Below are positions 1 to 13,384 of a DNA stretch of 23,444 nucleotides, in pieces (positions within the stretch are counted from its first letter, which is position 1; each line of letters begins with the position of its first letter). The position numbers and the translations under genes were made by a program. The stretch covers positions 1 to 23,444 of the IMG/VR virus record IMGVR_UViG_3300045988_101337; one strand, 5' to 3'. Below the pieces are notes generated by a model. That model did no database searches. It was not told the origin of the DNA and was given only the letters and a program-made list of their open reading frames with translations. The stretch comes from a virus (Duplodnaviria > Heunggongvirae > Uroviricota > Caudoviricetes).

Positions 1-484
1 CTTCGCGCAAGGGTAGATTGTCAGTACTTTTGCCATTAAGAATCAGTAAGCTGGCGGGAAATTCTGCCATGATCGTATGTGCCTTTATGATTGGTCTGTA
101 GATAGTGTAGAGCAGAAAACAAAAGGTGGAGTCAGAACAGGATGAAAGTCGGAGGATAAAAAGTCAGTTCAAGTATGGAGGATTCAGTGGTTACCACCAG
201 GAGCTTGCAATGGGGACAGCGAATACTAACGGCTGCCACCGATAAATTTCAAAAAAGAGCATATGCCTAATATTCAACCAAACAGTGGCATCTTAAATAT
301 ACTATTCCAAATATATTAAAGCCCCCATGGAGTTACCCTGAAGGGCCTCAATGTCCGTAATTCCTACTTATGTAGGAAATGTTGTACAGAACATTTATTA
401 TAATCCTATTCAATTATAATAATCATGCCATTATTATATTTAAACACTAGAGAGTGTCGTTGGTATTTAATGGGGGAAGGTGAG

Positions 485-802
485 ATGAAAAAGATAGCTG
501 CTATATCATTAATTAGTATTTTTATTGTGTCTGGTTGTGCTGTGCATAATGATGAGACAAGTATCGGTAAATTTGGTCTTGCATATAAAAGTAATATTCA
601 GCGTAAACTCGATAACCAATACTACACCGAAGCCGAAGCTTCTTTAGCCAGGGGCAGAATATCTGGTGCAGAAAATATAGTAAAAAATGATGCAGCCCAT
701 TTCTGTGTTACTCAGGGCAAAAAAATGCAGATAGTTGACCTGAAGACAGAAGGTGCAGGATTACATGGCGTCGCTCGTCTGACATTCAAATGTGGAGAGT
801 GA
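485..802 (+). CDS. yegR: Small host lipoprotein, YegR-like (105 aa); listed ORF 425..802 trimmed to the internal ATG at 485
   Basis: ATG at 485 follows a purine-rich RBS (GGGGGAAGGTGAG). N-terminus MKKIAAISLISIFIVSGC has a signal peptide and lipobox cysteine. It sits immediately outside the attL core, where yegR lies at the E. coli P2 site locI; gene name is from memory. Confidence 0.55.
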   Translation: MKKIAAISLISIFIVSGCAVHNDETSIGKFGLAYKSNIQRKLDNQYYTEAEASLARGRISGAENIVKNDAAHFCVTQGKKMQIVDLKTEGAGLHGVARLTFKCGE

Positions 803-1067: not shown

Positions 1068-2081
1068 TTACTCTACTGTGGACACTGTGTGGACACTCTC
1101 GACCTCAGTACCACCTCTTAGCGGATTAAGAGAAATGGCGTCCTGAAGGTACTCTGGCGCAAAATGAGCGTAAACCATAGTTTGCTCAATCCGCGTGTGA
1201 CCTAGTATCCGTTGTAGCGTGATAATACTTCCTCCATTAATCATGAAATGAGTGGCAAAGCTGTGCCTTAGTGCATGTGTAGCTTGCCCCATTGGCAAAT
1301 CCGGTTTTATTGCTTTCATTGTTCGTCTGAAGCGAGGGTAATCAGCATCAGGGAATAAAAAACCTCGTTTGTTATCCGCGATCATTTTGGCAACAGCCTC
1401 TGAGATCGGGACGGTGCGTGGTTTGTTTGTTTTCGTTTTAACAAACGTGACGCGGTTATGGATGATATTTTCTGCTTTCAAACGAGCTGCTTCTCCCCAA
1501 CGTGCTCCTGTACTCAGGCAAAGAATCGCAATCTTTTTGTTGTCGCCGTCAAGTGCTGCAAGCAGTAAGGCAATTTCTTCCTGTGTGAGATAGCCTGTTT
1601 CTGGTTTTTCCTCCTTAAGCCTCTTTGTCCCTCTGATAGGGTGCTCACCAAAGAATAACTCCGCTTCAATCAGGGCTGTAAACATGCCGCTAATACATGT
1701 TAAATCACGATTGATACTCGAAGGTTTAATACCCTGACTTCTTCGGGTGGCGCAGTACTGGCTGATAAGGGATTTCGTGATTTGAAATGCGCATGGGTCA
1801 TTCGTTATTTTTGTGAAGATTTCAATTTTTCCAAGATTAGATTTCCCATGCTCTTCGTGTTTACCCTTTAAATCCCACCAGATCTGTGTCAGTTCCGACA
1901 GACGTCGTTTGTCTGTTGGTTTTGATAGCCATTCTTTATTGTGGTGGTTGTACAACGTGTATTTTTCGAAAGCGACAGCTTCGCTTTTCTTATCAAACTT
2001 CCTACGGATGCGTTTTCCGTTACGTCCAGTAGGGCGGATGTCCACTTCATATCGACCATCATCGAGTTTTTTGATTGCCAT
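1068..2081 (-). CDS. int: Phage integrase, tyrosine recombinase (337 aa)
   Basis: 337-aa ORF, the same length as P2 Int. The C-terminal region has tyrosine-recombinase residues (HALRHSFATHF ... MVYAHF). It is adjacent to the att core and preceded by a GGAGGG RBS on the minus strand. Confidence 0.93.
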   Translation of the reverse strand: MAIKKLDDGRYEVDIRPTGRNGKRIRRKFDKKSEAVAFEKYTLYNHHNKEWLSKPTDKRRLSELTQIWWDLKGKHEEHGKSNLGKIEIFTKITNDPCAFQITKSLISQYCATRRSQGIKPSSINRDLTCISGMFTALIEAELFFGEHPIRGTKRLKEEKPETGYLTQEEIALLLAALDGDNKKIAILCLSTGARWGEAARLKAENIIHNRVTFVKTKTNKPRTVPISEAVAKMIADNKRGFLFPDADYPRFRRTMKAIKPDLPMGQATHALRHSFATHFMINGGSIITLQRILGHTRIEQTMVYAHFAPEYLQDAISLNPLRGGTEVESVHTVSTVE

Positions 2082-4385: not shown

Positions 4386-4657
4386 GTATTCGTATTGAAA
4401 TTGGCGAACGTTATGTCGTTACCAGTGACAGCTTTCAGTTTATTCTCCACGAGAAAAAGAGAGCGGAAAGCGGTAAAAACGCCGGTCAGGAATGGCTGGC
4501 GGTGGTTGGTTATTATCCGAAATTAAGCCAGCTCGTTTCCGGCCTGATGCATCACGATATTCTGACCGGAAGCGCAAAGTCTTTTGCTGATTTAAACGCG
4601 CAGGTTGAGCAACTCAGCAGGCGTTGTTCAGAGGCTTTTGGCTCATATGGCCGTTAA
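4382..4657 (+). CDS. Small early hypothetical protein (P2 orf83 position)
   Basis: 91-aa ORF that overlaps the start of A. Confidence 0.5.
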   Translation: MSIRIEIGERYVVTSDSFQFILHEKKRAESGKNAGQEWLAVVGYYPKLSQLVSGLMHHDILTGSAKSFADLNAQVEQLSRRCSEAFGSYGR

Positions 4658-6926
4658 AGCCTCCGGGCGTTTTGTCCCTCCTTCAGCATTTGCTGCAGGC
4701 ACCGGTAAGGCGTTTACCGGTGCTTATGCATGGAACGCGCCACGCGAGGCCGTCGGGCGCGAAAGACCCCTTACACGTGACGAGATGCGTCAGGTGCAAG
4801 GTGTTTTATCCACGATTAACCGCCTGCCTTACTTTTTGCGCTCGCTGTTTACTTCACGCTATGACTACATCCGGCGCAATAAAAGCCCGGTACACGGGTT
4901 TTATTTCCTCACATCCACTTTTCAGCGTCGTTTATGGCCGCGCATTGAGCGTGTGAATCAGCGCCATGAAATGAACACCGACGCGTCGTTACTGTTTCTG
5001 GCAGAGCGTGACCACTATGCGCGCCTGCCGGGAATGAATGACAAGGAGCTGAAAAAGTTTGCTGCCCGTATCTCATCGCAGCTTTTCATGATGTATGAGG
5101 AACTCAGCGATGCCTGGGTGGATGCGCATGGCGAAAAAGAATCGCTGTTTACGGATGAGGCGCAGGCTCACCTCTATGGTCATGTTGCTGGCGCTGCACG
5201 TGCTTTCAATATTTCCCCTCTCTACTGGAAAAAATACCGTAAAGGACAGATGACCACGAGGCAGGCATATTCTGCCATTGCCCGTCTGTTTAACGATGAG
5301 TGGTGGACTCATCAGCTTAAAGGTCAGCGTATGCGCTGGCATGAGGCGTTACTGATTGCTGTCGGGGAGGTGAATAAAGACCGTTCTCCTTATGCCAGTA
5401 AACATGCCATTCGTGATGTGCGTGCGCGCCGCCAGGCAAATCTGGAATTTCTTAAATCGTGTGACCTTGAAAACAGGGAAACCGGCGAGCGCATCGACCT
5501 TATCAGTAAGGTGATGGGAAGTATTTCTAATCCTGAAATTCGCCGGATGGAGCTGATGAACACCATTGCCGGTATTGAGCGTTACGCCGCTGCAGAGGGT
5601 GATGTGGGGATGTTTATCACGCTGACCGCGCCGTCAAAGTATCACCCGACACGTCAGGTCGGAAAAGGCGAAAGTAAAACCGTTCAGCTTAATCACGGCT
5701 GGAACGATGAGGCATTTAATCCAAAGGATGCGCAGCGTTATCTCTGCCGTATCTGGAGCCTGATGCGCACGGCATTCAAGGATAATGATTTACAGGCCTA
5801 CGGTTTGCGTGTCGTCGAGCCACACCACGACGGAACGCCGCACTGGCATATGATGCTTTTTTGTAATCCACGCCAGCGTAACCAGATTATCGAAATCATG
5901 CGTCGCTATGCGCTCAAAGAGGATGGCGACGAAAGAGGAGCCGCGCGAAACCGTTTTCAGGCAAAACATCTTAACCGGGGCGGTGCTGCGGGGTATATCG
6001 CGAAATACATCTCAAAAAATATCGACGGCTATGCACTGGATGGGCAGCTCGATAACGATACCGGCAGACCGCTGAAAGATACTGCCGCGGCTGTTACCGC
6101 ATGGGCGTCAACGTGGCGCATTCCGCAATTTAAAACGGTTGGCCTGCCGACAATGGGGGCTTACCGTGAACTACGCAAATTGCCTCGCGGCGTCAGCATT
6201 GCTGATGAGTTTGACGAGCGCGTCGAGGCTGCACGCGCCGCCGCAGACAGTGGTGATTTTGCGTTGTATATCAGCGCGCAGGGTGGGGCAAATGTTCCGC
6301 GCGATTGTCAGACTGTCAGAGTCGCCCGTAGCCCGTCGGATGACGTTAACGAGTACGAGGAAGAGGTCGAGAGAGTGGTCGGCATTTACGCGCCGCATCT
6401 CGGCGCGCGTCATATTCATATCACCAGAACCACGGACTGGCGCATTGTGCCGAAAGTGCCGGTCGTTGAGCCTTTGACTTTAAAAAGCGGCATCGCCGCG
6501 CCTCGGAGTCCTGTCAATAACTGTGGAAAGCTCACCGGTGGTGATACTTCGTTACCGGCTCCCACACCTTCTGAGCACGCCGCAGCAGTGCTTAATCTGG
6601 TAGATGACGGTGTTATCGAATGGAATGACCCGGAGGTCGTGAGGGCGCTCAGAGGTGCATTAAAACACGGCCTGAGAAGACCAAACCGTCAGCAAAGAAA
6701 CGGAAGCCCGTTAAAACCGCATGAAATAGCGCCATCGGCCAGACTGACCCGGTCTGAACGATTGCAAATCACCCGTATCCGCGTTGACCTTGCTCAGAAC
6801 GGTATCAGGCCGCAGCGATGGGAGCTTGAGGCGCTGGCGCGTGGCGCGACCGTAAATTATGACGGGAAAAAATTCACGTATCCGGTCGCTGATGAGTGGT
6901 CGGGATTCTGGCATCAATTTGAGTAA
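4647..6926 (+). CDS. A: Replication initiation endonuclease A, rolling-circle initiator (about 759 aa); listed ORF 4605..6926 trimmed to the ATG at 4647
   Basis: Large ORF in the P2 A position. Starting at MAVKASGRFVPP gives a length close to P2 A (about 761 aa). The upstream in-frame ATG at 4605 lies inside orf83 and is less likely. It contains the HxH-like metal motif (PHWHMM) and a paired-tyrosine segment (YIAKYISK) expected of rolling-circle initiators. Confidence 0.9.
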   Translation: MAVKASGRFVPPSAFAAGTGKAFTGAYAWNAPREAVGRERPLTRDEMRQVQGVLSTINRLPYFLRSLFTSRYDYIRRNKSPVHGFYFLTSTFQRRLWPRIERVNQRHEMNTDASLLFLAERDHYARLPGMNDKELKKFAARISSQLFMMYEELSDAWVDAHGEKESLFTDEAQAHLYGHVAGAARAFNISPLYWKKYRKGQMTTRQAYSAIARLFNDEWWTHQLKGQRMRWHEALLIAVGEVNKDRSPYASKHAIRDVRARRQANLEFLKSCDLENRETGERIDLISKVMGSISNPEIRRMELMNTIAGIERYAAAEGDVGMFITLTAPSKYHPTRQVGKGESKTVQLNHGWNDEAFNPKDAQRYLCRIWSLMRTAFKDNDLQAYGLRVVEPHHDGTPHWHMMLFCNPRQRNQIIEIMRRYALKEDGDERGAARNRFQAKHLNRGGAAGYIAKYISKNIDGYALDGQLDNDTGRPLKDTAAAVTAWASTWRIPQFKTVGLPTMGAYRELRKLPRGVSIADEFDERVEAARAAADSGDFALYISAQGGANVPRDCQTVRVARSPSDDVNEYEEEVERVVGIYAPHLGARHIHITRTTDWRIVPKVPVVEPLTLKSGIAAPRSPVNNCGKLTGGDTSLPAPTPSEHAAAVLNLVDDGVIEWNDPEVVRALRGALKHGLRRPNRQQRNGSPLKPHEIAPSARLTRSERLQITRIRVDLAQNGIRPQRWELEALARGATVNYDGKKFTYPVADEWSGFWHQFE

Positions 6927-7015
6927 GGATCTCATCTATACAGTATAAGTAGTTTTGACTGTAATTGATTGTTTTTTATATGGTTGCATGCATTAAATCT
7001 ACGTCAATATCATTA

Positions 7016-7024
7016 TGTTATAAT
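7016..7024 (+). promoter_or_regulatory. Candidate extended -10 promoter (TGnTATAAT) for the cargo operon
   Basis: TGTTATAAT at 7016-7024, about 30 bp upstream of the ATG at 7053, in an AT-rich intergenic region after A. There is no good -35, which is consistent with the extended -10 class. Confidence 0.35.
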
Positions 7025-7052
7025 GCATTACTTAAAAATGTTGGAGATAAAA

Positions 7053-7244
7053 ATGTTAAAGCCTGCAGATGTTGTTTGTTTGAAAAGCGGTGGATTTAAA
7101 ATGACTGTATCTGACTCTACTGAAACTCATGCTAAATGTATTTGGCATGATAAAGAAGGAGTTTTGCACGAGGAGTCATTCTCCATTGATTTACTGGAAA
7201 TAGCAGAGAGTAAAAGTGGTATGCTTTGTCGTCCACGTAAGTGA
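7053..7244 (+). CDS. Small DUF2158/YodC-like protein (63 aa), first gene of the cargo cassette; listed ORF 6969..7244 trimmed
   Basis: ATG at 7053 follows a GGAGATAAAA RBS. The N-terminus MLKPADVVCLKSGGFKMTV resembles the conserved start of YodC/DUF2158 small proteins as I recall it. AT-rich. Confidence 0.5.
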   Translation: MLKPADVVCLKSGGFKMTVSDSTETHAKCIWHDKEGVLHEESFSIDLLEIAESKSGMLCRPRK

Positions 7245-7271
7245 ATCATAATAAAATTCACGGGGGAAAGT

Positions 7272-7952
7272 ATGAAACAATACAGCGAATTAGAAAACAA
7301 TGTTAAGAGATTCATTGTTGAGCATGAAAAAGGGATTTCTATTGATGATATTCATCATAAGTTCCGGATGAAGGATGGTCAGAATCGCAAGATGGCAGAT
7401 TATCTTATTAATAATAAAAAGATAATTTTGGAGATGAAAAGTCTTTTTTCTGACAGGGTCAAGAATGTCAATGATAAACTGAATGAGTTGGTTAAAACTG
7501 ATAGTTGGCTTGCAAAAAACTGGCATGGTGCTATTCATTTAGAAGAGTTGATAAAAAGACACCCAGACTCAAAGCGATTTAGAAATGATATAATGAACTT
7601 TGCTTATGAAAATATTAAAACAAAGATAGTTAAGGAAGCTAATAAGCAAATAAATGCAACAAAGGATGTTTTGGATTTAAATGACTCGATTGGCGGGTTG
7701 ATTTTGTTAAATGATAATGTCTTTTCACATGAGTCTAATTATTTGTCAGATGAAATATTATATTTGCTAGGCACAAAGAGATATTCGAGTGTTGAGTTTG
7801 TGGTTTATATTGCAAAATTGATTGATAAACAGGTTGATGTTTGTGTGCTACTTGACAGTCAATCTAAAAATAAAAATTATATTGAATGGTATATGAATAA
7901 TGTTTTTTTATTGAACTGGGCGTCTTTTAATAAATATGCAATAAAGATGTAG
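7272..7952 (+). CDS. Uncharacterised 226-aa protein in the variable A-cos locus (candidate defence protein)
   Basis: Long clean ORF with a GGGGGAAAG RBS, 27 bp after the small ORF and so probably co-transcribed. AT-rich and Lys/Asn-rich. No P2 counterpart. A possible D ... ExK arrangement (ADYLINNKKIILEMKS) is only a motif-level hint of a PD-(D/E)xK nuclease. Confidence 0.6.
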   Translation: MKQYSELENNVKRFIVEHEKGISIDDIHHKFRMKDGQNRKMADYLINNKKIILEMKSLFSDRVKNVNDKLNELVKTDSWLAKNWHGAIHLEELIKRHPDSKRFRNDIMNFAYENIKTKIVKEANKQINATKDVLDLNDSIGGLILLNDNVFSHESNYLSDEILYLLGTKRYSSVEFVVYIAKLIDKQVDVCVLLDSQSKNKNYIEWYMNNVFLLNWASFNKYAIKM

Positions 7953-8271
7953 TGGTGTGGATGGATATGAAATGAGTCAACCAAGATGCACCTTGGTCAG
8001 TAATCTCATGTGAGATACCACATATAACACCAAAAGTGTCAGGTTGATGGCCATTGTTCACCGTTTACAGCAGATTATGGTCAACGAAAATCTGACGCCT
8101 GACGAGCTGGTCGGGTGTGCCGAAATAGTCTGGGATAATTACGGGCGGTTTAACTATATCGGTCAGTCCAGAGTTGCGCCACCACCACGCAGACGATAGA
8201 GAACGCCGCCAGTCGTGAAACTTGTTTTCAGGCTGGCGGGGTTGAACAACGAGCGAAGTGAGGCGTTAGCA

Positions 8272-9213
8272 TTAAGTTAATTTTAATGAATGGTACTCTA
8301 TCGAGCTGATTGTAGATGCGATATATTTACGATCATTTACAGAGAGTATTGCCGCTAGTAGACGACATACCAGAGCCTGCATTTGTAGCAATATATCGCT
8401 ACCATATTGACAATCATTGATACTAGAGAAACCAAGCGGTTGCCCATTAAAAATGGCTTCATGAAAATTATCATTGCGTATAACTGAAACATTACATTCA
8501 TCTGTTGCCCATGACGGGATTTTTACACCGTAATTTTCGCACATCCAATACACTCTATTTTGATGAGATGGTTTTTTCTCTTTAATGACTTTATCCCTTT
8601 CATCCCATGCTATAGCAAAACAGCAATCAAGAGCCATATAAAGATACTGGAATTTCTCAAAGGAAAGGTATAGTGGGTTATGTGACAGGAATAGGGAGTG
8701 TATCACCGCAGCTATTCTTTTAATGGAGCGATCATCTTTTTGTTTGTCTTTTATATAGTTAAGTGCTAGCTCTATTACTTCTTTTTCAGAGCATCCAACG
8801 AGAATAAAGTCGGTTAACTTAGTGGGCTTGATAGTGGTTGCATCAAGAAAACCAGCGTCAGTGGTTGTCAATCTTATACCCTTGAAAAAAGAGAGGCACC
8901 ACACAACAAAGTTGAGAGTTTCTAACGAGGATGTGTTTTTTAATTTTAGTGTGTGCGTTTTGGGCATGCCGAATACTCGGTAACTATAAGGCATTGTGCA
9001 TGTGTCACCATTAAGGTTATATACCTTTCGATTCCCAGGGTATATCCAACCATTAACAACGTTTTTATCATTGTTAATACGTTCCACGTTCTCAATAAGA
9101 CCGGGTAAAGTACGCAAAGAAAATTGTTCAGTCTCAATGTTAACTTCTACTGGATAGTATCCAAACTCCGAAATAATCTCATTTGGTTGCTGTTCGTCAA
9201 CTTCACCTTGCAT
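8272..9213 (-). CDS. Uncharacterised 313-aa protein with a C-terminal RNxxxH (HEPN-like) motif; candidate abortive-infection or defence effector occupying the P2 old position
   Basis: Clean 313-aa ORF on the minus strand with a GGAGA RBS upstream of the ATG at 9213. AT-rich. It contains RNDNFH (R-x4-H) near the C-terminus and a second R-x5-H (RIAAVIH). It is convergent with the 226-aa gene. No P2 homologue is recognisable. Confidence 0.6.
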   Translation of the reverse strand: MQGEVDEQQPNEIISEFGYYPVEVNIETEQFSLRTLPGLIENVERINNDKNVVNGWIYPGNRKVYNLNGDTCTMPYSYRVFGMPKTHTLKLKNTSSLETLNFVVWCLSFFKGIRLTTTDAGFLDATTIKPTKLTDFILVGCSEKEVIELALNYIKDKQKDDRSIKRIAAVIHSLFLSHNPLYLSFEKFQYLYMALDCCFAIAWDERDKVIKEKKPSHQNRVYWMCENYGVKIPSWATDECNVSVIRNDNFHEAIFNGQPLGFSSINDCQYGSDILLQMQALVCRLLAAILSVNDRKYIASTISSIEYHSLKLT

Positions 9214-9451
9214 AACTTTCTCCGTTCAAAAACAGGCACGATAATTCTCGTAAGCCTATCATGTTCGCAAAGTATCCATACCTGTGGATTTTGTAAATTT
9301 AAGTTGATTTGTCATTAAATAAGCCGTTGCATGCAACAAGTGAATGTTTTTGCATGCGTCGGGGATGTCCGTTCAGGCTGCGTGCGGTCAGGACTGGTGC
9401 GGATCCATAGTATCTATGCAACTGCATTAAAACCGCCCCATGAAGCGGGCG

Positions 9452-9470
9452 GGCGAGGCGGGGAAAGCAC
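9452..9470. other. cos site (P2-type 19-nt cohesive end region)
   Basis: GGCGAGGCGGGGAAAGCAC matches the P2/186 cohesive end as I recall it. It lies about 80 bp beyond the 3' end of portal gene Q, as in P2. Confidence 0.6.
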
Positions 9471-9522
9471 TGCGCGCTGTTTTGTGCGGTGGTGAGTGTG
9501 TGAGGGCGTGATGACGGGGTGT

Positions 9523-9549: not shown

Positions 9550-10584
9550 TCAGCCGTTGTCAGTGTCCAGTGAGTAGTTTTTAAAGCTGATGACCTCCTG
9601 ACCGAGCCAGCCGTTTATCTCGCGGATCCTGTCCTGTAACGGGATAAGCTCATTGCGGACAAAGACCTTTGCCACTTTCTCAATATCTCCCAGTGACCCG
9701 ACGTTCTCCGGCTTGCCGCCCATCAACTGAAAGGGGATACGGTGCGCGTCCAGCAGGTCAGCGGCGCTGGCTTTTTTGATATTAAAAAAATCGTCCTTCG
9801 TTGCCACTTCACTGAGCGGGATAATTTTAATGCCGTCAGCTTTCCCCTGCGGGGCATAGAGAAACAGATTTTTAAAGTTGTTGCGACCTTTCGACTTAAC
9901 CATGTTTTCGCGAAGCATTTCGATATCGTTGCGATCCTGCACGGCATCGGTGACGTACATGATGTATCCGGCATGTGCGCCATTTTCGTAATACTTGCGG
10001 CGGAACAGCGTAGCTGATTCATTCAGCCAGGCAGAATTAAGGGCGCTGAGATATTCCGGCAGGCCGTACAGCTCCTGATTAATATCCGGCTCCAGCAGGT
10101 GAAACACGGAGCCGGGCGCGAAAGGTGTCGGCTCGTTGAAGGACGGCACCCACCAGTAAACATCCTCCTCAACACCACGGCGGGTATATTTTGCCGGTGA
10201 GGTTTCCAGTCTGATGACCTTACCGGTGGTGCTGTAGCGCTTTTCCAGAAACGCATTACCGAACACCAGAAAATCCAGCACAAAGCGGCTGAAATCCTGC
10301 TGGGAAAGCCACGGGTGCGGAATAAACGTTGAAGCCAGAATATTACGTTTGACGTAAATCGGTGAGCTGTGATGTACGGCAGCACGCAGGCTTTTTGCCA
10401 GACCGGTAAAGCTGACCGGTGGCTCATACCATCTGCCGTTACTGATGCACTCGACGTAATCCAGAATGTCACGGCGGTCGAGTACCGGCACCGGCTCACC
10501 AAAGGTGAATGCCTCCATTTTCGGGGCGCTGGCGGTGATTGTTTTTGCCGCAGGTTGCGGTGTTTTCCCTTTTTTCTTGCTCAT
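9550..10584 (-). CDS. Q: Portal protein (344 aa)
   Basis: 344-aa ORF, the same length as P2 gpQ. It is translationally coupled to P (start and stop overlap at 10584) and adjacent to cos. Confidence 0.93.
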   Translation of the reverse strand: MSKKKGKTPQPAAKTITASAPKMEAFTFGEPVPVLDRRDILDYVECISNGRWYEPPVSFTGLAKSLRAAVHHSSPIYVKRNILASTFIPHPWLSQQDFSRFVLDFLVFGNAFLEKRYSTTGKVIRLETSPAKYTRRGVEEDVYWWVPSFNEPTPFAPGSVFHLLEPDINQELYGLPEYLSALNSAWLNESATLFRRKYYENGAHAGYIMYVTDAVQDRNDIEMLRENMVKSKGRNNFKNLFLYAPQGKADGIKIIPLSEVATKDDFFNIKKASAADLLDAHRIPFQLMGGKPENVGSLGDIEKVAKVFVRNELIPLQDRIREINGWLGQEVISFKNYSLDTDNG

Positions 10585-12356
10585 CAGTAAAACTCCAGAA
10601 TGGTGGATGTCAGCGGAGTGCTGATACCGGCGGTGAGTGGCTCATTTAACAGGGCGTGCATGGTCGCCCAGGCGAGGTCGGCGTGGCTGGCTTCCTCGCT
10701 GCGGCTGGCCTCATAGGTGGCGCTGCGTCCGCTGCTGGTCATGGTCTTGCGGATAGCCATAAACGAGCTGGTGATGTCGGTGGCGCTGACGTCATATTCC
10801 AGACAGCCACGGCGGATGACGTCTTTTGCCTTGAGCACCATTGCGGTTTTCATTTCCGGCGTGTAGCGGATATCGCGCGCGGCGGGATAGAACGAGCGCA
10901 CGAGCTGGAACACGCCGACACCGAGGCCGGTGGCATCAATCCCGATGTATTCAACGTTATATTTTTCGGTGAGTTTGCGGATGGATTCCGCCTGGGTGGC
11001 AAAGTCCATGCCTTTCCACTGGTGACGCTCAAGTATTCTGAATTTGCCACCGGCCACCACCGGCGGTGCCAGCACCACGCATCCGGCGCTGTCGCCACGG
11101 TGTGACGGGTCGTAACCAATCCATACCGGACGTGAGCCGAACGGATTGACGGCAAACGGCGCATAGTCTTCCCATTCTTCCAGCGTATCGACCATGCAGC
11201 GTTGCAGCTCCTCGAACGGGAACACCGACGCCTTGTCGTCAACAAATTCACACATGAACAGGTTTTTAAAATCGTCGGCGCTGTTTTCACGTTTGAGCTG
11301 CTCAATGTCGAACAGCGTGCAGCCACCTTTCAGGGCATCCTCAATGGTGACAATCTGCCGCCACTGGCCGTCCGCACAGAGAAGCCCACCGGCAAGGGCG
11401 TTATGACTGACGTCGATTTCCACGCGTTCGGCGGCGCTGGCGCGTCCCCGGTTGAACAGTTCACCTGACCAGAACGGGTAGGCGTCGTGCGCCAGCGTGG
11501 ACGGGGTGGAGAAATAGGTCGAGCGCAGGTGACTCTGTGAGGCCATACCTGATGCCACCTTACGCAGTACCTGAAAATTCGGGATCCAGAAAATCTCGTC
11601 GACGTACAGGTCGCCGTTATGGCTCTGCGCGGTGTTGGAGTTGGTGCCGAGAAAAATCAGTTTTGCGCCGTTATTGCCAAGGACAATCGGGTCACCGGTC
11701 AGGTCAACGTCAACCAGACGGGCAAAGGCGATGATGTATTCACGGAACACATACGCCTGCGTTTTACTGGCCGACAGAAAAATCTGGTTATGACCGGTTT
11801 TCAGGGCGCGCAGCAGCGCCTCGCGGGAAAAATAAAACGTCGCGCCAATCTGGCGGGATTTCAGGATATCGCGGATGCGGTGCTCAAGCCCGGCGCGATA
11901 CCAGTGCAACTGATATTCAAAAGACTGCTCAAAGAAAATCTGCTCCAGCTTTTCGATGGCCTCGTCACTGAAAAAATTCTTTTTCGGTTTGCGACGCCCG
12001 CCTTTGTTGCGGTTAGCGACGTTCGGATTAAGGTCTGCCTCGTTGCCGGTCTGACTGTAGCGGTTGACCCGTGCCAGTCGTTCAATCTGACGTCCCAGCA
12101 GGTCAATTTCCTTGAAGTCACCGCCGGTTTTCTGCGGTTTGATGATGAGCTGGGTCAGCCGCGCTTCCAGACTCATTTCGACACGGCTGATGGGGGCAAC
12201 GCTGTCCCAGCCGTCGCGCTGTTTCCAGCTCTGCACCGTCGGGCGTTTCATCTGCAACATGGCGGCAATCTGCGGCACGGAAAACCCCTGCCAGTACAGC
12301 AGCGCCGCCTGACGACGCGGGTCGTGTAAAAGAGTGGTGTCTGTGGTGATGGTCAT
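10584..12356 (-). CDS. P: Terminase large (ATPase) subunit (590 aa); listed ORF 10584..12386 trimmed to the ATG at 12356
   Basis: Starting at MTITTDTT gives 590 aa, the length of P2 gpP. It sits upstream of portal in the leftward Q-P late operon. Confidence 0.93.
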   Translation of the reverse strand: MTITTDTTLLHDPRRQAALLYWQGFSVPQIAAMLQMKRPTVQSWKQRDGWDSVAPISRVEMSLEARLTQLIIKPQKTGGDFKEIDLLGRQIERLARVNRYSQTGNEADLNPNVANRNKGGRRKPKKNFFSDEAIEKLEQIFFEQSFEYQLHWYRAGLEHRIRDILKSRQIGATFYFSREALLRALKTGHNQIFLSASKTQAYVFREYIIAFARLVDVDLTGDPIVLGNNGAKLIFLGTNSNTAQSHNGDLYVDEIFWIPNFQVLRKVASGMASQSHLRSTYFSTPSTLAHDAYPFWSGELFNRGRASAAERVEIDVSHNALAGGLLCADGQWRQIVTIEDALKGGCTLFDIEQLKRENSADDFKNLFMCEFVDDKASVFPFEELQRCMVDTLEEWEDYAPFAVNPFGSRPVWIGYDPSHRGDSAGCVVLAPPVVAGGKFRILERHQWKGMDFATQAESIRKLTEKYNVEYIGIDATGLGVGVFQLVRSFYPAARDIRYTPEMKTAMVLKAKDVIRRGCLEYDVSATDITSSFMAIRKTMTSSGRSATYEASRSEEASHADLAWATMHALLNEPLTAGISTPLTSTILEFY

Positions 12357-12529
12357 GAATACCTCGCCGTGATGAATACACGGCAAGGCTACTGAGTCGC
12401 GCCCCGCGATTCGCTAAGGTGCTGTTGTGTCAGTGATAAGCCATCCGGGACTGATGGCGGAGGATGCGCATCGTCGGGAAACTGATGCCGACATGTGACT
12501 CCTCTACTCACTATTCAGGACTCCTGACA

Positions 12530-13384
12530 ATGGCAAAAAAAGTCTCAAAATTCTTTCGTATCGGCGTTGAGGGTGACACCTGTGACGGGCGTGTCATCAG
12601 TGCGCAGGATATTCAGGAAATGGCCGAAACCTTTGACCCGCGTGTCTATGGTTGCCGCATTAACCTGGAACATCTGCGCGGCATCCTGCCTGACGGTATT
12701 TTTAAACGTTATGGCGATGTGGTCGAACTGAAGGCCGAAAAGATTGACGACGATTCGGCGCTGAAAGGCAAATGGGCGCTGTTTGCGAAAATCACCCCGA
12801 CCGATGACCTTATTGCGATGAACAAGGCCGCGCAGAAGGTCTACACCTCAATGGAAATTCAGCCGAACTTTGCCAATACCGGCAAATGTTATCTGGTGGG
12901 TCTGGCCGTCACCGACGACCCGGCGAGCCTCGGCACGGAATACCTGGAATTCTGCCGCAAGGCAAAACACAACCCCCTGAACCGCTTCAAATTAAGCCCT
13001 GAAAACCTGATTTCAGTGGCAACGCCCGTTGAGCTGGAATTTGAAGACCTGCCTGAAACCGTGTTCACCGCCCTGACCGAAAAGGTGAAATCCATTTTTG
13101 GTCGCAAACAGGCCAGTGATGACGCCCGTCTGAATGATGTGCATGAAGCGGTGACCGCTGTTGCTGAACATGTGCAGGAAAAACTGAGCGCCACTGAGCA
13201 GCGCCTCGCTGAGATGGAAAACGCCTTTTCCGCACTTAAGCAGGAGGTGACTGACAGGGCGGATGAAACCAGCCAGGCATTCACCCGCCTGAAAAACAGT
13301 CTCGACAACACCGAAAGTCTGACCCAGCAGCGCCGCAGCAAGGCCACCGGCGGTGGCGGAGACGCCCTGATGACGAACTGCTGA
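12530..13384 (+). CDS. O: Capsid scaffolding protein (284 aa); listed ORF 12464..13384 trimmed to the ATG at 12530
   Basis: Starting at MAKKVSKFF gives 284 aa, the length of P2 gpO. It is first in the rightward O-N-M-L operon and divergent from P. Confidence 0.9.
   Translation: MAKKVSKFFRIGVEGDTCDGRVISAQDIQEMAETFDPRVYGCRINLEHLRGILPDGIFKRYGDVVELKAEKIDDDSALKGKWALFAKITPTDDLIAMNKAAQKVYTSMEIQPNFANTGKCYLVGLAVTDDPASLGTEYLEFCRKAKHNPLNRFKLSPENLISVATPVELEFEDLPETVFTALTEKVKSIFGRKQASDDARLNDVHEAVTAVAEHVQEKLSATEQRLAEMENAFSALKQEVTDRADETSQAFTRLKNSLDNTESLTQQRRSKATGGGGDALMTNC

Follow-up and report, generated by a model that had tools for sequence, protein, structure and literature searches.

A predicted HEPN-domain protein and a DUF2158-linked putative nuclease in the A-to-cos interval of a P2-like phage

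Anatomy of the A-to-cos interval

The window analysed here is a 23,444-nucleotide stretch of IMG/VR virus record IMGVR_UViG_3300045988_101337. Between its P2 gene A, which ends at position 6926, and its cos site lie three intact ORFs of low GC content (Table 1). The GC fraction is 0.300 for ORF226, 0.380 for the DUF2158 gene and 0.373 for ORF313, compared with 0.531 for the remaining window. An earlier sequence-only reading had described an AT-rich, compositionally foreign island of three ORFs at this location, and both the ORF calls and the base composition bear that description out. Each of the three ORFs is represented in other genera by homologues that share many invariant residues, and we therefore regard them as real genes.

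Table 1. Features in and around the A-to-cos interval (window coordinates).
Feature	Position	Strand	Remarks
A-like replication endonuclease	4605-6926	+	ORF calling
Left cargo module (DUF2158 + ORF226)	6910-8011	+	GC 0.317; boundaries from blastn; in the Orf91 (DUF3850) slot of reference P2
DUF2158 small protein, 63 aa	7053-7244	+	first gene of the left module; Pfam PF09926; phrog_3261
ORF226, predicted PD-(D/E)xK-type nuclease of an unnamed superfamily	7272-7952	+	
GC-normal P2-family backbone remnant, 258 bp	8012-8269	+	splits the two modules
51-aa ORF in backbone remnant	8044-8199		corresponds to a conserved 68-aa P2-like ORF but is N-terminally truncated
ORF313, convergent	8272-9213	-	tin/old slot; oriented as tin and old
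ORF313 upstream region	9214-9422	-	Shine-Dalgarno sequence and candidate sigma-70 promoter
P2-type cos cohesive-end sequence GGCGAGGCGGGGAAAGCAC	9452-9470	+	exact match; right boundary of the variable locus
Portal	9550-10584	-	ORF calling
Terminase	10584-12386	-	ORF calling

As the earlier reading supposed, the interval corresponds to the variable locus of P2, whose role as an anti-phage gene hotspot has been validated (Rousset et al. 2022; Vassallo et al. 2022). It was also right that orf91, tin and old are missing. None of the window ORFs matches tin, old or Orf91 in PADLOC or Pfam, and there is no DUF3850 (Orf91-type) ORF in the interval; Orf91 of P2 is a DUF3850 protein encoded by an early-operon accessory gene. 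In a blastn comparison with NC_001895 (reference P2), matches are confined to the end of A (6800-6909) and to cosR (9423-9470). When P2 and phage VB-YPM-4 are both used as references, homology ends at 6909 and restarts at 8012, where a remnant of backbone DNA with a GC fraction of 0.508 lies between two AT-rich blocks. This remnant shares 91% identity with a P2 isolate and 98.7% with VB-YPM-4, matches Wphi gp92, and is recognized by phrog_11386 of PHROGs. The sequences flanking cos (9416-9479) are kept in P2, Citrobacter and Yersinia loci. The AT-rich stretch placed by the earlier reading at 6927-9300 is real, but non-P2 DNA reaches approximately 9422, and the region upstream of ORF313 has no homology to NC_001895 by blastn.

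A consensus scan yields a weak candidate promoter for the left module at 6955-6984, and a candidate promoter for ORF313 (ATGACA-16-CAAAAT, 9315-9288) that by itself is not significant. Because the number of matches in the promoter and terminator scan is not above the shuffled expectation, all promoter assignments are tentative. The upstream region of ORF313 occupies a position analogous to that of the mapped old-tin promoter adjoining cosR in P2, where transcripts start about 150 bp from cosR.

Searches of all ORFs with PADLOC, Pfam, NCBIfam and PHROGs return only DUF2158 and PHROGs of unknown function, and profile searches of PDB sequences give chance matches only (RNR R2, E 0.02; asparaginase, E 1). 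The earlier reading recognized none of the three proteins as a named defence family, and a PADLOC v2 run agrees with it. That picture can be refined: as detailed below, ORF313 is a predicted HEPN-domain protein and ORF226 is likely a PD-(D/E)xK nuclease.

The left module encodes a DUF2158 protein and a predicted nuclease

The A-proximal module appears to be a two-gene operon. Its first ORF starts with an ATG at 7053 that is preceded by a GGAG Shine-Dalgarno sequence, and the product matches PF09926 with an E-value of 4.5e-8 and a score of 33.2 bits against a gathering cut-off of 22.3, an annotation that is the same in RefSeq. This gene is located directly 5' of ORF226 in every E. coli and Citrobacter P2-like locus seen, and here the gap between the two is 27 bp.

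ORF226 matches no nuclease model in Pfam, NCBIfam or PADLOC, and a Foldseek search against the PDB gives no significant match with which to confirm a PD-(D/E)xK core fold. Its residues D43, E54 and K56 do not vary among 14 close homologues or in alignment A3, and are conserved at 99%, 100% and 100%, respectively, among 130 distant representatives; conservation across these representatives is 97-100% when Q126 and N147 are considered together with the triad. The homologues form a superfamily of 348 clusters, with members that reside on plasmids and in non-phage islands, either alone or fused to other domains. In long relatives the domain is fused to Mrr_cat and SEC-C, with the Mrr_cat match falling in a different, N-terminal domain from the ORF226-like one. 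The conserved triad and these fusions make it likely that ORF226 is a PD-(D/E)xK-type nuclease. Compared with BsmI, NucC, CdiA-CT, HamA and Mrr, ORF226 is distinguished by a long helical insertion (residues 62-134) and by its small DUF2158 partner.

The role of this pair is less certain than that of ORF313. DUF2158 might act as a small regulatory or adaptor partner of the nuclease, and the module would most likely degrade or nick the DNA of competitor phages or plasmids, or else serve the early programme of the phage itself. The module is co-directional with the early replication operon, and may be expressed during lytic growth rather than in the lysogen. With this orientation, a role that benefits the phage fits at least as well as defence of the lysogen.

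We consider it possible, though doubtful, that DUF2158 and ORF226 are an early pair that offers the lysogen no protection and functions instead as an accessory of replication or recombination, as an anti-defence factor or as a homing-type endonuclease. In the last variant, which shares this same modest standing, a free-standing endonuclease would spread by cutting P2 relatives that lack the module. Besides its orientation, the module lies only 126 bp downstream of the stop codon of A and replaces the early accessory gene Orf91, and a nuclease gene that is free-standing, AT-rich and flanked by conserved phage genes has the typical anatomy of a homing endonuclease. The rarity of the module (27 of 5426 E. 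coli genomes, see below) is also consistent with such a function. However, the presence of the superfamily on plasmids and in non-phage islands, whether alone or in Mrr_cat/SEC-C fusions, is atypical for homing endonucleases or replication accessories, and the candidate promoter of the module is weak evidence against this interpretation as well.

ORF313 is a predicted stand-alone HEPN protein

A confident structural model of ORF313 comprises an N-terminal alpha/beta domain (approximately residues 1-140), in which R79, H87, R114, D124 and D135 are conserved, and a C-terminal HEPN domain (approximately 143-300). The latter adopts a four-helix HEPN fold bearing the catalytic-type motif R246-N247-D-N-F-H251-E252 (Rx4-6H), in which R, N, H and E are the same in all of 56 homologues with identities as low as 44%. 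The best structural matches of this domain are HEPN toxins of the HepT/MNT type (PDB 7ae2, 5yep), which share the minimal four-helix RNase domain and the Rx4-6H motif. We therefore assign ORF313 as a HEPN-domain protein on the basis of the model and the invariant R-N-x3-H-E residues. No Pfam HEPN family is matched at E<=0.1 by ORF313 or by 55 homologues, and PADLOC and Pfam scans across the family (56 homologues) give no match. One homologue carries the name 'Apea-like HEPN', in UniRef only.

ORF313 is a stand-alone gene associated with mobile elements and defence genes. None of its neighbours is conserved across seven kinds of context. In an ICE-like island of P. aeruginosa, a homologue adjoins a Gabija-like OLD-TOPRIM and UvrD pair; another in Stenotrophomonas lies in an NCAB2/NLR-like island, and further homologues are found in integrase/resolvase islets.

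Most likely, by analogy, ORF313 is a single-protein abortive-infection RNase. The cos-proximal gene, on the minus strand in the tin/old slot, probably has its own promoter, and thus would be expected to be expressed in the lysogen. We envision a self-contained sensor-effector in which the conserved N-terminal domain senses an infection cue, although this sensing step is purely conjectural because that domain has no informative structural match. The HEPN domain would then dimerize to build an RNase site on R246 and H251, and this site might cut RNAs of the host, with tRNA anticodon loops or mRNA as the most likely substrates, such that growth of the infected cell stops.

This scheme is modelled on ApeA and DARNA/PD-T7-3, single-protein HEPN defences in which tRNA is cleaved after activation by a ligand or by ssDNA. 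ApeA (Gao et al. 2020; bioRxiv 10.64898/2026.01.26.701840) is likewise a single protein with a C-terminal HEPN RNase domain. Its non-catalytic N-terminal parts bind the activating ligand, and cleavage of tRNA anticodon loops results in abortive infection (bioRxiv 10.64898/2026.01.26.701840); activation is by deoxydinucleotides, and HEPN_Apea entries are found in P4/P2-type hotspots (Rousset et al. 2022, Table S1). However, ApeA is an all-alpha protein of about 580 aa composed of N, Mid and split HEPN_ApeA domains, whereas ORF313 has 313 aa and a beta-rich alpha/beta N-terminal domain. Neither the Pfam HEPN_Apea profile nor the PADLOC ApeA model matches ORF313 or its 55 homologues. Architecture and profile negatives together rule out membership of ORF313 in the ApeA family.

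DARNA/PD-T7-3 (Vassallo et al. 2022; bioRxiv 10.64898/2026.02.22.705581) likewise stands alone as a HEPN protein, carries an Rx4H motif and is an infection-activated tRNase triggered by SSB-bound ssDNA (bioRxiv 10.64898/2026.02.22.705581). This 456-aa protein has an N-terminal HEPN domain followed by a Pds5-like helical ssDNA sensor, whereas ORF313 has the reverse order and an unrelated partner domain. The reversed order and the lack of a PADLOC PD-T7-3 match also exclude ORF313 from this family.

P2 tin and old, lysogenic-conversion genes that exclude other phages, share with ORF313 the same slot, the same orientation and a promoter adjoining cosR (a candidate only for ORF313). The resemblance does not extend to sequence or domains, as Old is of the ABC-ATPase/TOPRIM type and Tin is related to neither ORF313 nor ORF226.

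An alternative that applies to both modules is that the genes are addiction or selfish elements, toxin-antitoxin-like stabilizers of prophages or plasmids that play no anti-phage role, with DUF2158 neutralizing ORF226 and ORF313 acting as an auto-inhibited HEPN toxin. A small gene positioned directly 5' of an enzyme gene with a short gap does resemble a toxin-antitoxin operon, and the Pantoea homologues of ORF226 adjoin the IncFII replication region on conjugative plasmids. However, these Pantoea loci have no DUF2158 gene within 6 kb of the ORF226 homologue, and DUF2158 thus is not an obligatory antidote. HepT is a single domain of about 130 aa with a cognate MNT antitoxin, whereas ORF313 carries an extra 140-residue domain and has no conserved partner gene; in no context is there a conserved small neighbour. 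Scans of the island for RNA antitoxins, repeats and Rfam families give chance-level matches only, with no repeats of the RNA-antitoxin type. Moreover, the hotspot turns over its cargo rapidly, to the advantage of defence functions. We therefore consider the addiction interpretation unlikely, noting that toxin-antitoxin and abortive-infection functions are compatible with each other.

The two modules have different distributions

The sequence-only reading treated the three genes as one system and proposed that a comparison of A-cos intervals would reveal whether the cassette travels as a unit. That comparison speaks against both ideas. In a survey of 5426 complete E. coli genomes, ORF313 is present in 93 and the DUF2158-ORF226 pair in 27. 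ORF226 is missing from 66 of the 93 genomes that carry ORF313, and there the A-proximal partners are DUF3850 and 68-aa genes, DinI-like genes or ImmA/IrrE genes. ORF313 also occurs apart from the left module in Yersinia phages (VB-YPM-4), in Klebsiella 186/P2-like prophages and, outside phages, in islands of five further genera (including Pseudomonas, Acinetobacter, Aeromonas and Stenotrophomonas). Conversely, two Citrobacter P2-like prophages, which match the window at 73-75% over positions 6603-7957 by blastn, carry DUF2158 and ORF226 with no ORF313, and their cos-proximal cargo is unrelated.

Given these separate occurrences, the backbone remnant between the AT-rich blocks and the listing of two systems by Rousset et al. 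(2022), we lean, at slightly better than even chances, towards two independent accessory modules that were placed by recombination in adjacent variable slots, with the roles proposed above for ORF313 and for the left module.

The distribution within E. coli is nevertheless striking in one respect: all 27 genomes with the left module also have ORF313, about 310 bp away. In nine of them a divergent ORF313 allele (about 85% nucleotide identity), one of two alleles overall, resides beside an ORF226 that is about 99% identical, and the pairing has therefore outlived at least one allele swap. There is some prospect, given this linkage and the two alleles, that the modules are functionally connected in this species. 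The strongest form of such a connection, a single anti-phage system of three interdependent genes in which, for example, a nuclease-derived signal activates the HEPN RNase, has a precedent in ApeA as a HEPN defence activated by products of DNA degradation, but is improbable because each module occurs separately as described above, ORF226 homologues stand alone on the Pantoea IncFII plasmids, the modules lie on opposite strands with 258 bp of GC-normal backbone DNA between them, they are counted as two systems by Rousset et al., and recombination between homologous copies of ORF313 and of the conserved sequences flanking it can explain the allele swap with no need for functional coupling. An obligate three-gene linkage, which the 27 co-occurrences had suggested, is ruled out by the Citrobacter and Pantoea loci. 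Cooperation in E. coli, with DNA fragments from the nuclease switching on the HEPN RNase, would explain the linkage in all 27 genomes, and we give it only a very slight chance.

Earlier records and candidacy as anti-phage genes

The cassette had been called undescribed, which is only partly correct. It was deposited in 2006 as GenBank AM157369 (P2-EC67), where the genes appear as ORF73, ORF226 and ORF313, and in the catalogue of Rousset et al. (2022, Table S5B) the two modules have separate entries, systems #11 (218 loci) and #63 (67 loci), with ORF313-type genes at 218 of 18,150 E. coli loci. However, literature searches on P2-EC67, the accessions, the ORF names and DUF2158 returned nothing relevant, and we found no experiment on either family. 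Peptide strings of ORF313 and ORF226 are present only in catalogue Table S5 of Rousset et al. and are absent from their table of tested systems (Table S2). The island is thus distinct from the active three-gene P2 system in that study ('no clear predicted domain', active on P1). Nor is ORF313 the 'Putative HEPN' that the same study tested as pFR103 (E. coli S88), whose sequence is that of a different, larger protein.

Both modules are plausible anti-phage candidates. The P2 A-cos locus is among the best-validated places for new bacterial immunity genes. Three of eight further systems from the P2 hotspot were active, in addition to old-tin (Rousset et al. 2022), and four new systems of Vassallo et al. 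(2022) map to the gpA-portal position of P2-like prophages. Further candidates there will not surprise specialists. Of the unknown P2 proteins, only 15-32% are classed as antiviral by machine-learning estimates. That both modules represent new, unnamed anti-phage families is a tentative proposal, which we hold to be possible rather than probable.

If this proposal is true, a widespread family of gammaproteobacterial abortive-infection sensors, each a single HEPN protein, would have ORF313 as its founding member, and the conserved N-terminal alpha/beta domain of ORF313 would recognize a new kind of infection signal. DUF2158 and ORF226 would likewise constitute a new nuclease-based system drawn from the 348-cluster superfamily, whose members also occur as fusions with Mrr_cat and SEC-C. 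Among A-cos cargoes, ORF313-type genes rank with the commoner ones, yet they are unnamed and have no PADLOC model. Were ORF313 active, a compact 313-aa HEPN sensor-effector would join a class for which the mechanisms of activation are just emerging, and defence annotation would improve in thousands of enterobacterial, Pseudomonas, Acinetobacter and Aeromonas genomes. The view of ORF313 as a stand-alone HEPN protein whose partner domain is new, next to a separate nuclease module, leads to two minimal constructs, with R246/H251 and D43/E54/K56 as the respective residue targets.

The interval between A and cos

The window carries a P2-like prophage (see table) in which GC falls to 0.30-0.39 from A to portal, against 0.53 in the remainder of the window. 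Reference P2 has the gene order A, Orf91 (a DUF3850 protein, plus strand), tin and old (both minus strand), old-tin promoter and cosR. In a blastn comparison with that reference, the only matches across this interval are cosR and the last part of A, up to 6909. No tin-like or old-like gene was detected in the interval by PADLOC or Pfam, and no DUF3850 ORF lies between A and cos. Thus, the ORF map, GC content and searches bear out the sequence-only reading that three low-GC ORFs occupy this position in place of Orf91, tin and old, and the anatomy of the interval is real.

That reading overlooked a stretch of ordinary P2-family backbone that splits the AT-rich DNA into left and right blocks. This remnant shares 91% identity with a P2 isolate and 98.7% with Yersinia phage VB-YPM-4, and also matches Wphi gp92. 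Its 51-aa ORF is an N-terminally truncated form of a conserved 68-aa P2-like ORF (Wphi gp92/phrog_11386). The RefSeq name of the 51-aa ORF in E. coli strain LR-24, “meiotically up-regulated 80 protein”, looks like a spurious name transfer.

Features of the prophage and of its A-to-cos interval
Feature	Position	Strand	Remarks
125-aa ORF	425-802	+	no Pfam match
Integrase	1068-2081		left part of window
Repressor-like HTH, Cox and DUF5405 genes	left part of window
A-like replication endonuclease	4605-6926	+
Left AT-rich block	6910-8011		GC 0.317
DUF2158 protein, 63 aa	7053-7244	+	Pfam PF09926, E 4.5e-8, above gathering score
ORF226	7272-7952	+
Backbone remnant	8012-8269		GC 0.508
51-aa ORF	8044-8199		within remnant
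Right AT-rich block	8270 to ~9422
ORF313	8272-9213	-	GC 0.373
cosR match	9423-9470
cos, 19 nt	9452-9470
Portal	9550-10584	-
Terminase	10584-12386	-

LR-24 is the closest genome (99.9% identical). Relative to the window, it carries ~80 additional bases from cos to the portal gene; its alignment to the window stops at 9479 and picks up again with an offset, overlapping by 9 bases. This difference adjoining cos is an indel or duplication. The 125-aa ORF left of the integrase lies in low-GC DNA (first 600 bp, GC 0.37) and is either prophage cargo or host flank; for P2-like prophages, the att-integrase interval is reported to be a minor hotspot of defence.

Two modules with separate distributions

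The compared loci show that the two blocks move independently: ORF313 and the left module (DUF2158 and ORF226) each occur without the other. In VB-YPM-4, A is followed by DUF3850, a 68-aa ORF and ORF313 (99.7% amino acid identity), with DUF2158 and ORF226 absent. The partners at E. coli loci with ORF313 only are DUF3850 and the 68-aa ORF (plus IS2), a DinI-like gene, or ImmA/IrrE and a hypothetical gene, and in Klebsiella 186/P2-like prophages ORF313 occupies the same slot while the A-proximal genes are different again. Conversely, two Citrobacter P2-like prophages carry A, DUF2158 and an ORF226 homologue (73-75% nucleotide identity) followed by unrelated cargo (either DUF2188 or an unknown protein of 250 aa), and ORF313 is absent from both. 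Pantoea IncFII-type conjugative plasmids also carry an ORF226 homologue, at loci with neither DUF2158 nor ORF313. Since the remnant splits the interval and the modules are distributed separately, the proposal of a single three-gene system that travels as a unit among P2-like prophages is not supported.

A functional link between the left module and ORF313 retains some plausibility in E. coli, where 27 of 5426 complete genomes carry the left module and 93 carry ORF313. In all 27, ORF313 lies ~310 bp from the left module, and it does so in two allele combinations. Among genome matches H51-H77 and H78-H111, ORF226 and ORF313 are both at ~99.6-99.9% in one haplotype, and in the other ORF226 is at ~98.8% and ORF313 at ~85%. 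The divergent ORF313 allele (~85% nucleotide identity, beside ~99% identical ORF226) is found in 9 of the 27, and one genome is intermediate at 96%. We attribute this pairing and allele swap to linkage, and to allele exchange via homologous recombination through ORF313 and the conserved flanks, an account that does not fully cover the asymmetric linkage in E. coli. Against a functional link stand the ORF313 genes of VB-YPM-4, Klebsiella and the ORF313-only E. coli loci, and the left pair in Citrobacter.

In E. coli 2013C-4830, an IS2 insertion separates the 68-aa backbone ORF from an intact ORF313. Because gene A there is annotated as a truncated pseudogene, this prophage is probably defective.

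Earlier records of the cargo

At 92.9% identity, the cassette corresponds to GenBank AM157369 (“Bacteriophage P2-EC67 proviral ORF226 and ORF313”), where the genes are named ORF73/ORF226/ORF313, and this exact locus is in Table S5A of Rousset et al. 2022. In their Table S5B, system #11 (218 loci) is a single gene, an ORF313 homologue, and system #63 (67 loci) is ORF226 with DUF2158; neither is among the constructs that they list as tested. The “Putative HEPN” that they did test (pFR103) was rejected as ORF313, its sequence being that of a different protein. A literature search found no paper mentioning these proteins. The island was initially called undescribed, which holds in that its proteins are uncharacterised, but not for the cargo as such, already catalogued.

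At the P2 hotspot, activity was seen for old-tin and for three of eight other cloned systems (Rousset 2022), and four new systems of the Vassallo screen (2022) map to this A-to-cos position. Six of eight unknown P4 loci picked at random were active, but machine learning rates only 15-32% of unknown P2 proteins as antiviral. Such genes at this hotspot will not surprise specialists; the two modules do provide clean, testable constructs and mutants.

ORF313 as a putative HEPN ribonuclease

The ORF313 family comprises at least 260 clusters, from Escherichia, Salmonella, Klebsiella, Citrobacter, Enterobacter, Providencia, Aeromonas, Pseudomonas, Acinetobacter, Stenotrophomonas and Lysobacter. Across 56 members (44-78% identity), 47 positions are invariant, including R246-N247-x3-H251-E252, the HEPN Rx4-6H signature. 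Homologues also reside outside P2-like prophages: in an ICE-like island of P. aeruginosa, next to a PIN_8 protein in an Acinetobacter islet, at a chromosomal site in Aeromonas, in an integrase/resolvase islet of P. viridiflava, and together with an NCAB2 (NLR-type) protein in an island of Stenotrophomonas. No neighbour gene is conserved across these contexts, prophages included.

The best-supported mechanism is that ORF313 would be a self-contained, auto-inhibited HEPN RNase, which an infection cue would switch on through the N-terminal domain and which would then arrest the infected cell. This predicted scheme follows the pattern of ApeA, in which deoxydinucleotides activate a tRNA anticodon nuclease, and of DARNA/PD-T7-3, in which SSB-bound ssDNA activates a tRNase. 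However, both differ from ORF313 in domain order, size and partner domains, and ORF313 matches neither profile; membership in either family was therefore rejected. Within the known single-protein HEPN abortive-infection kind, ORF313 is a good candidate for a new variant.

ORF313 runs in the same direction as tin and old. Upstream of it are a Shine-Dalgarno sequence and, ~170 bp from cos, a weak candidate promoter whose position resembles that of the mapped old-tin promoter of P2. Neither RNA-antitoxin-like repeats nor Rfam elements were found within the island.

The P. aeruginosa island (loci L005-L009, ~9984-12960) also contains DUF932 and ParB_N, and 3 kb from the ORF313 homologue lies a Gabija-like pair, an OLD-like TOPRIM ABC-ATPase with a UvrD helicase after it. 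In Aeromonas veronii (L010-L013, 4684-6963), a 403-aa AlkZ-like gene (DNA glycosylase family) always precedes the homologue, and the two are kept together where upstream genes differ among strains. This could be a two-gene islet or coincidence.

ORF226 and DUF2158

Close relatives of ORF226 form only 26 clusters in a word-index search, all Enterobacterales, and an exhaustive profile search yields 348 representatives at E<=1e-3. Among 130 domain representatives, conservation is 99% for D43, 100% each for E54, K56 and Q126, and 97% for N147. D43 lies ahead of one beta-strand and E54-x-K56 on the next, which is the PD-(D/E)xK arrangement. Distant members occupy accessory or mobile contexts, and no partner gene is conserved at their loci.

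DUF2158 is directly upstream of ORF226 in every P2-like prophage locus compared; from its absence at the Pantoea loci, it does not appear to be an obligatory antidote. The pair starts 126 bp past the A stop codon, on the same strand and in the Orf91 slot, and may be expressed together with the early operon. We tentatively rank first a nuclease-based role in defence or exclusion of competitors. The pair could instead have a phage-benefit or anti-defence function, or be a homing-type endonuclease or an addiction module. As a defence candidate, this DUF2158-nuclease pair comes second and is weaker than ORF313.

Relatives of 600-740 aa (P0162, P0166, P0186, P0203 and P0257) join an N-terminal Mrr_cat restriction-endonuclease domain to a central ORF226-like domain (~residues 350-510), some with a C-terminal SEC-C zinc motif. 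None of the long relatives has a convincing PADLOC family match, and this unnamed multi-domain architecture may itself represent a defence protein.
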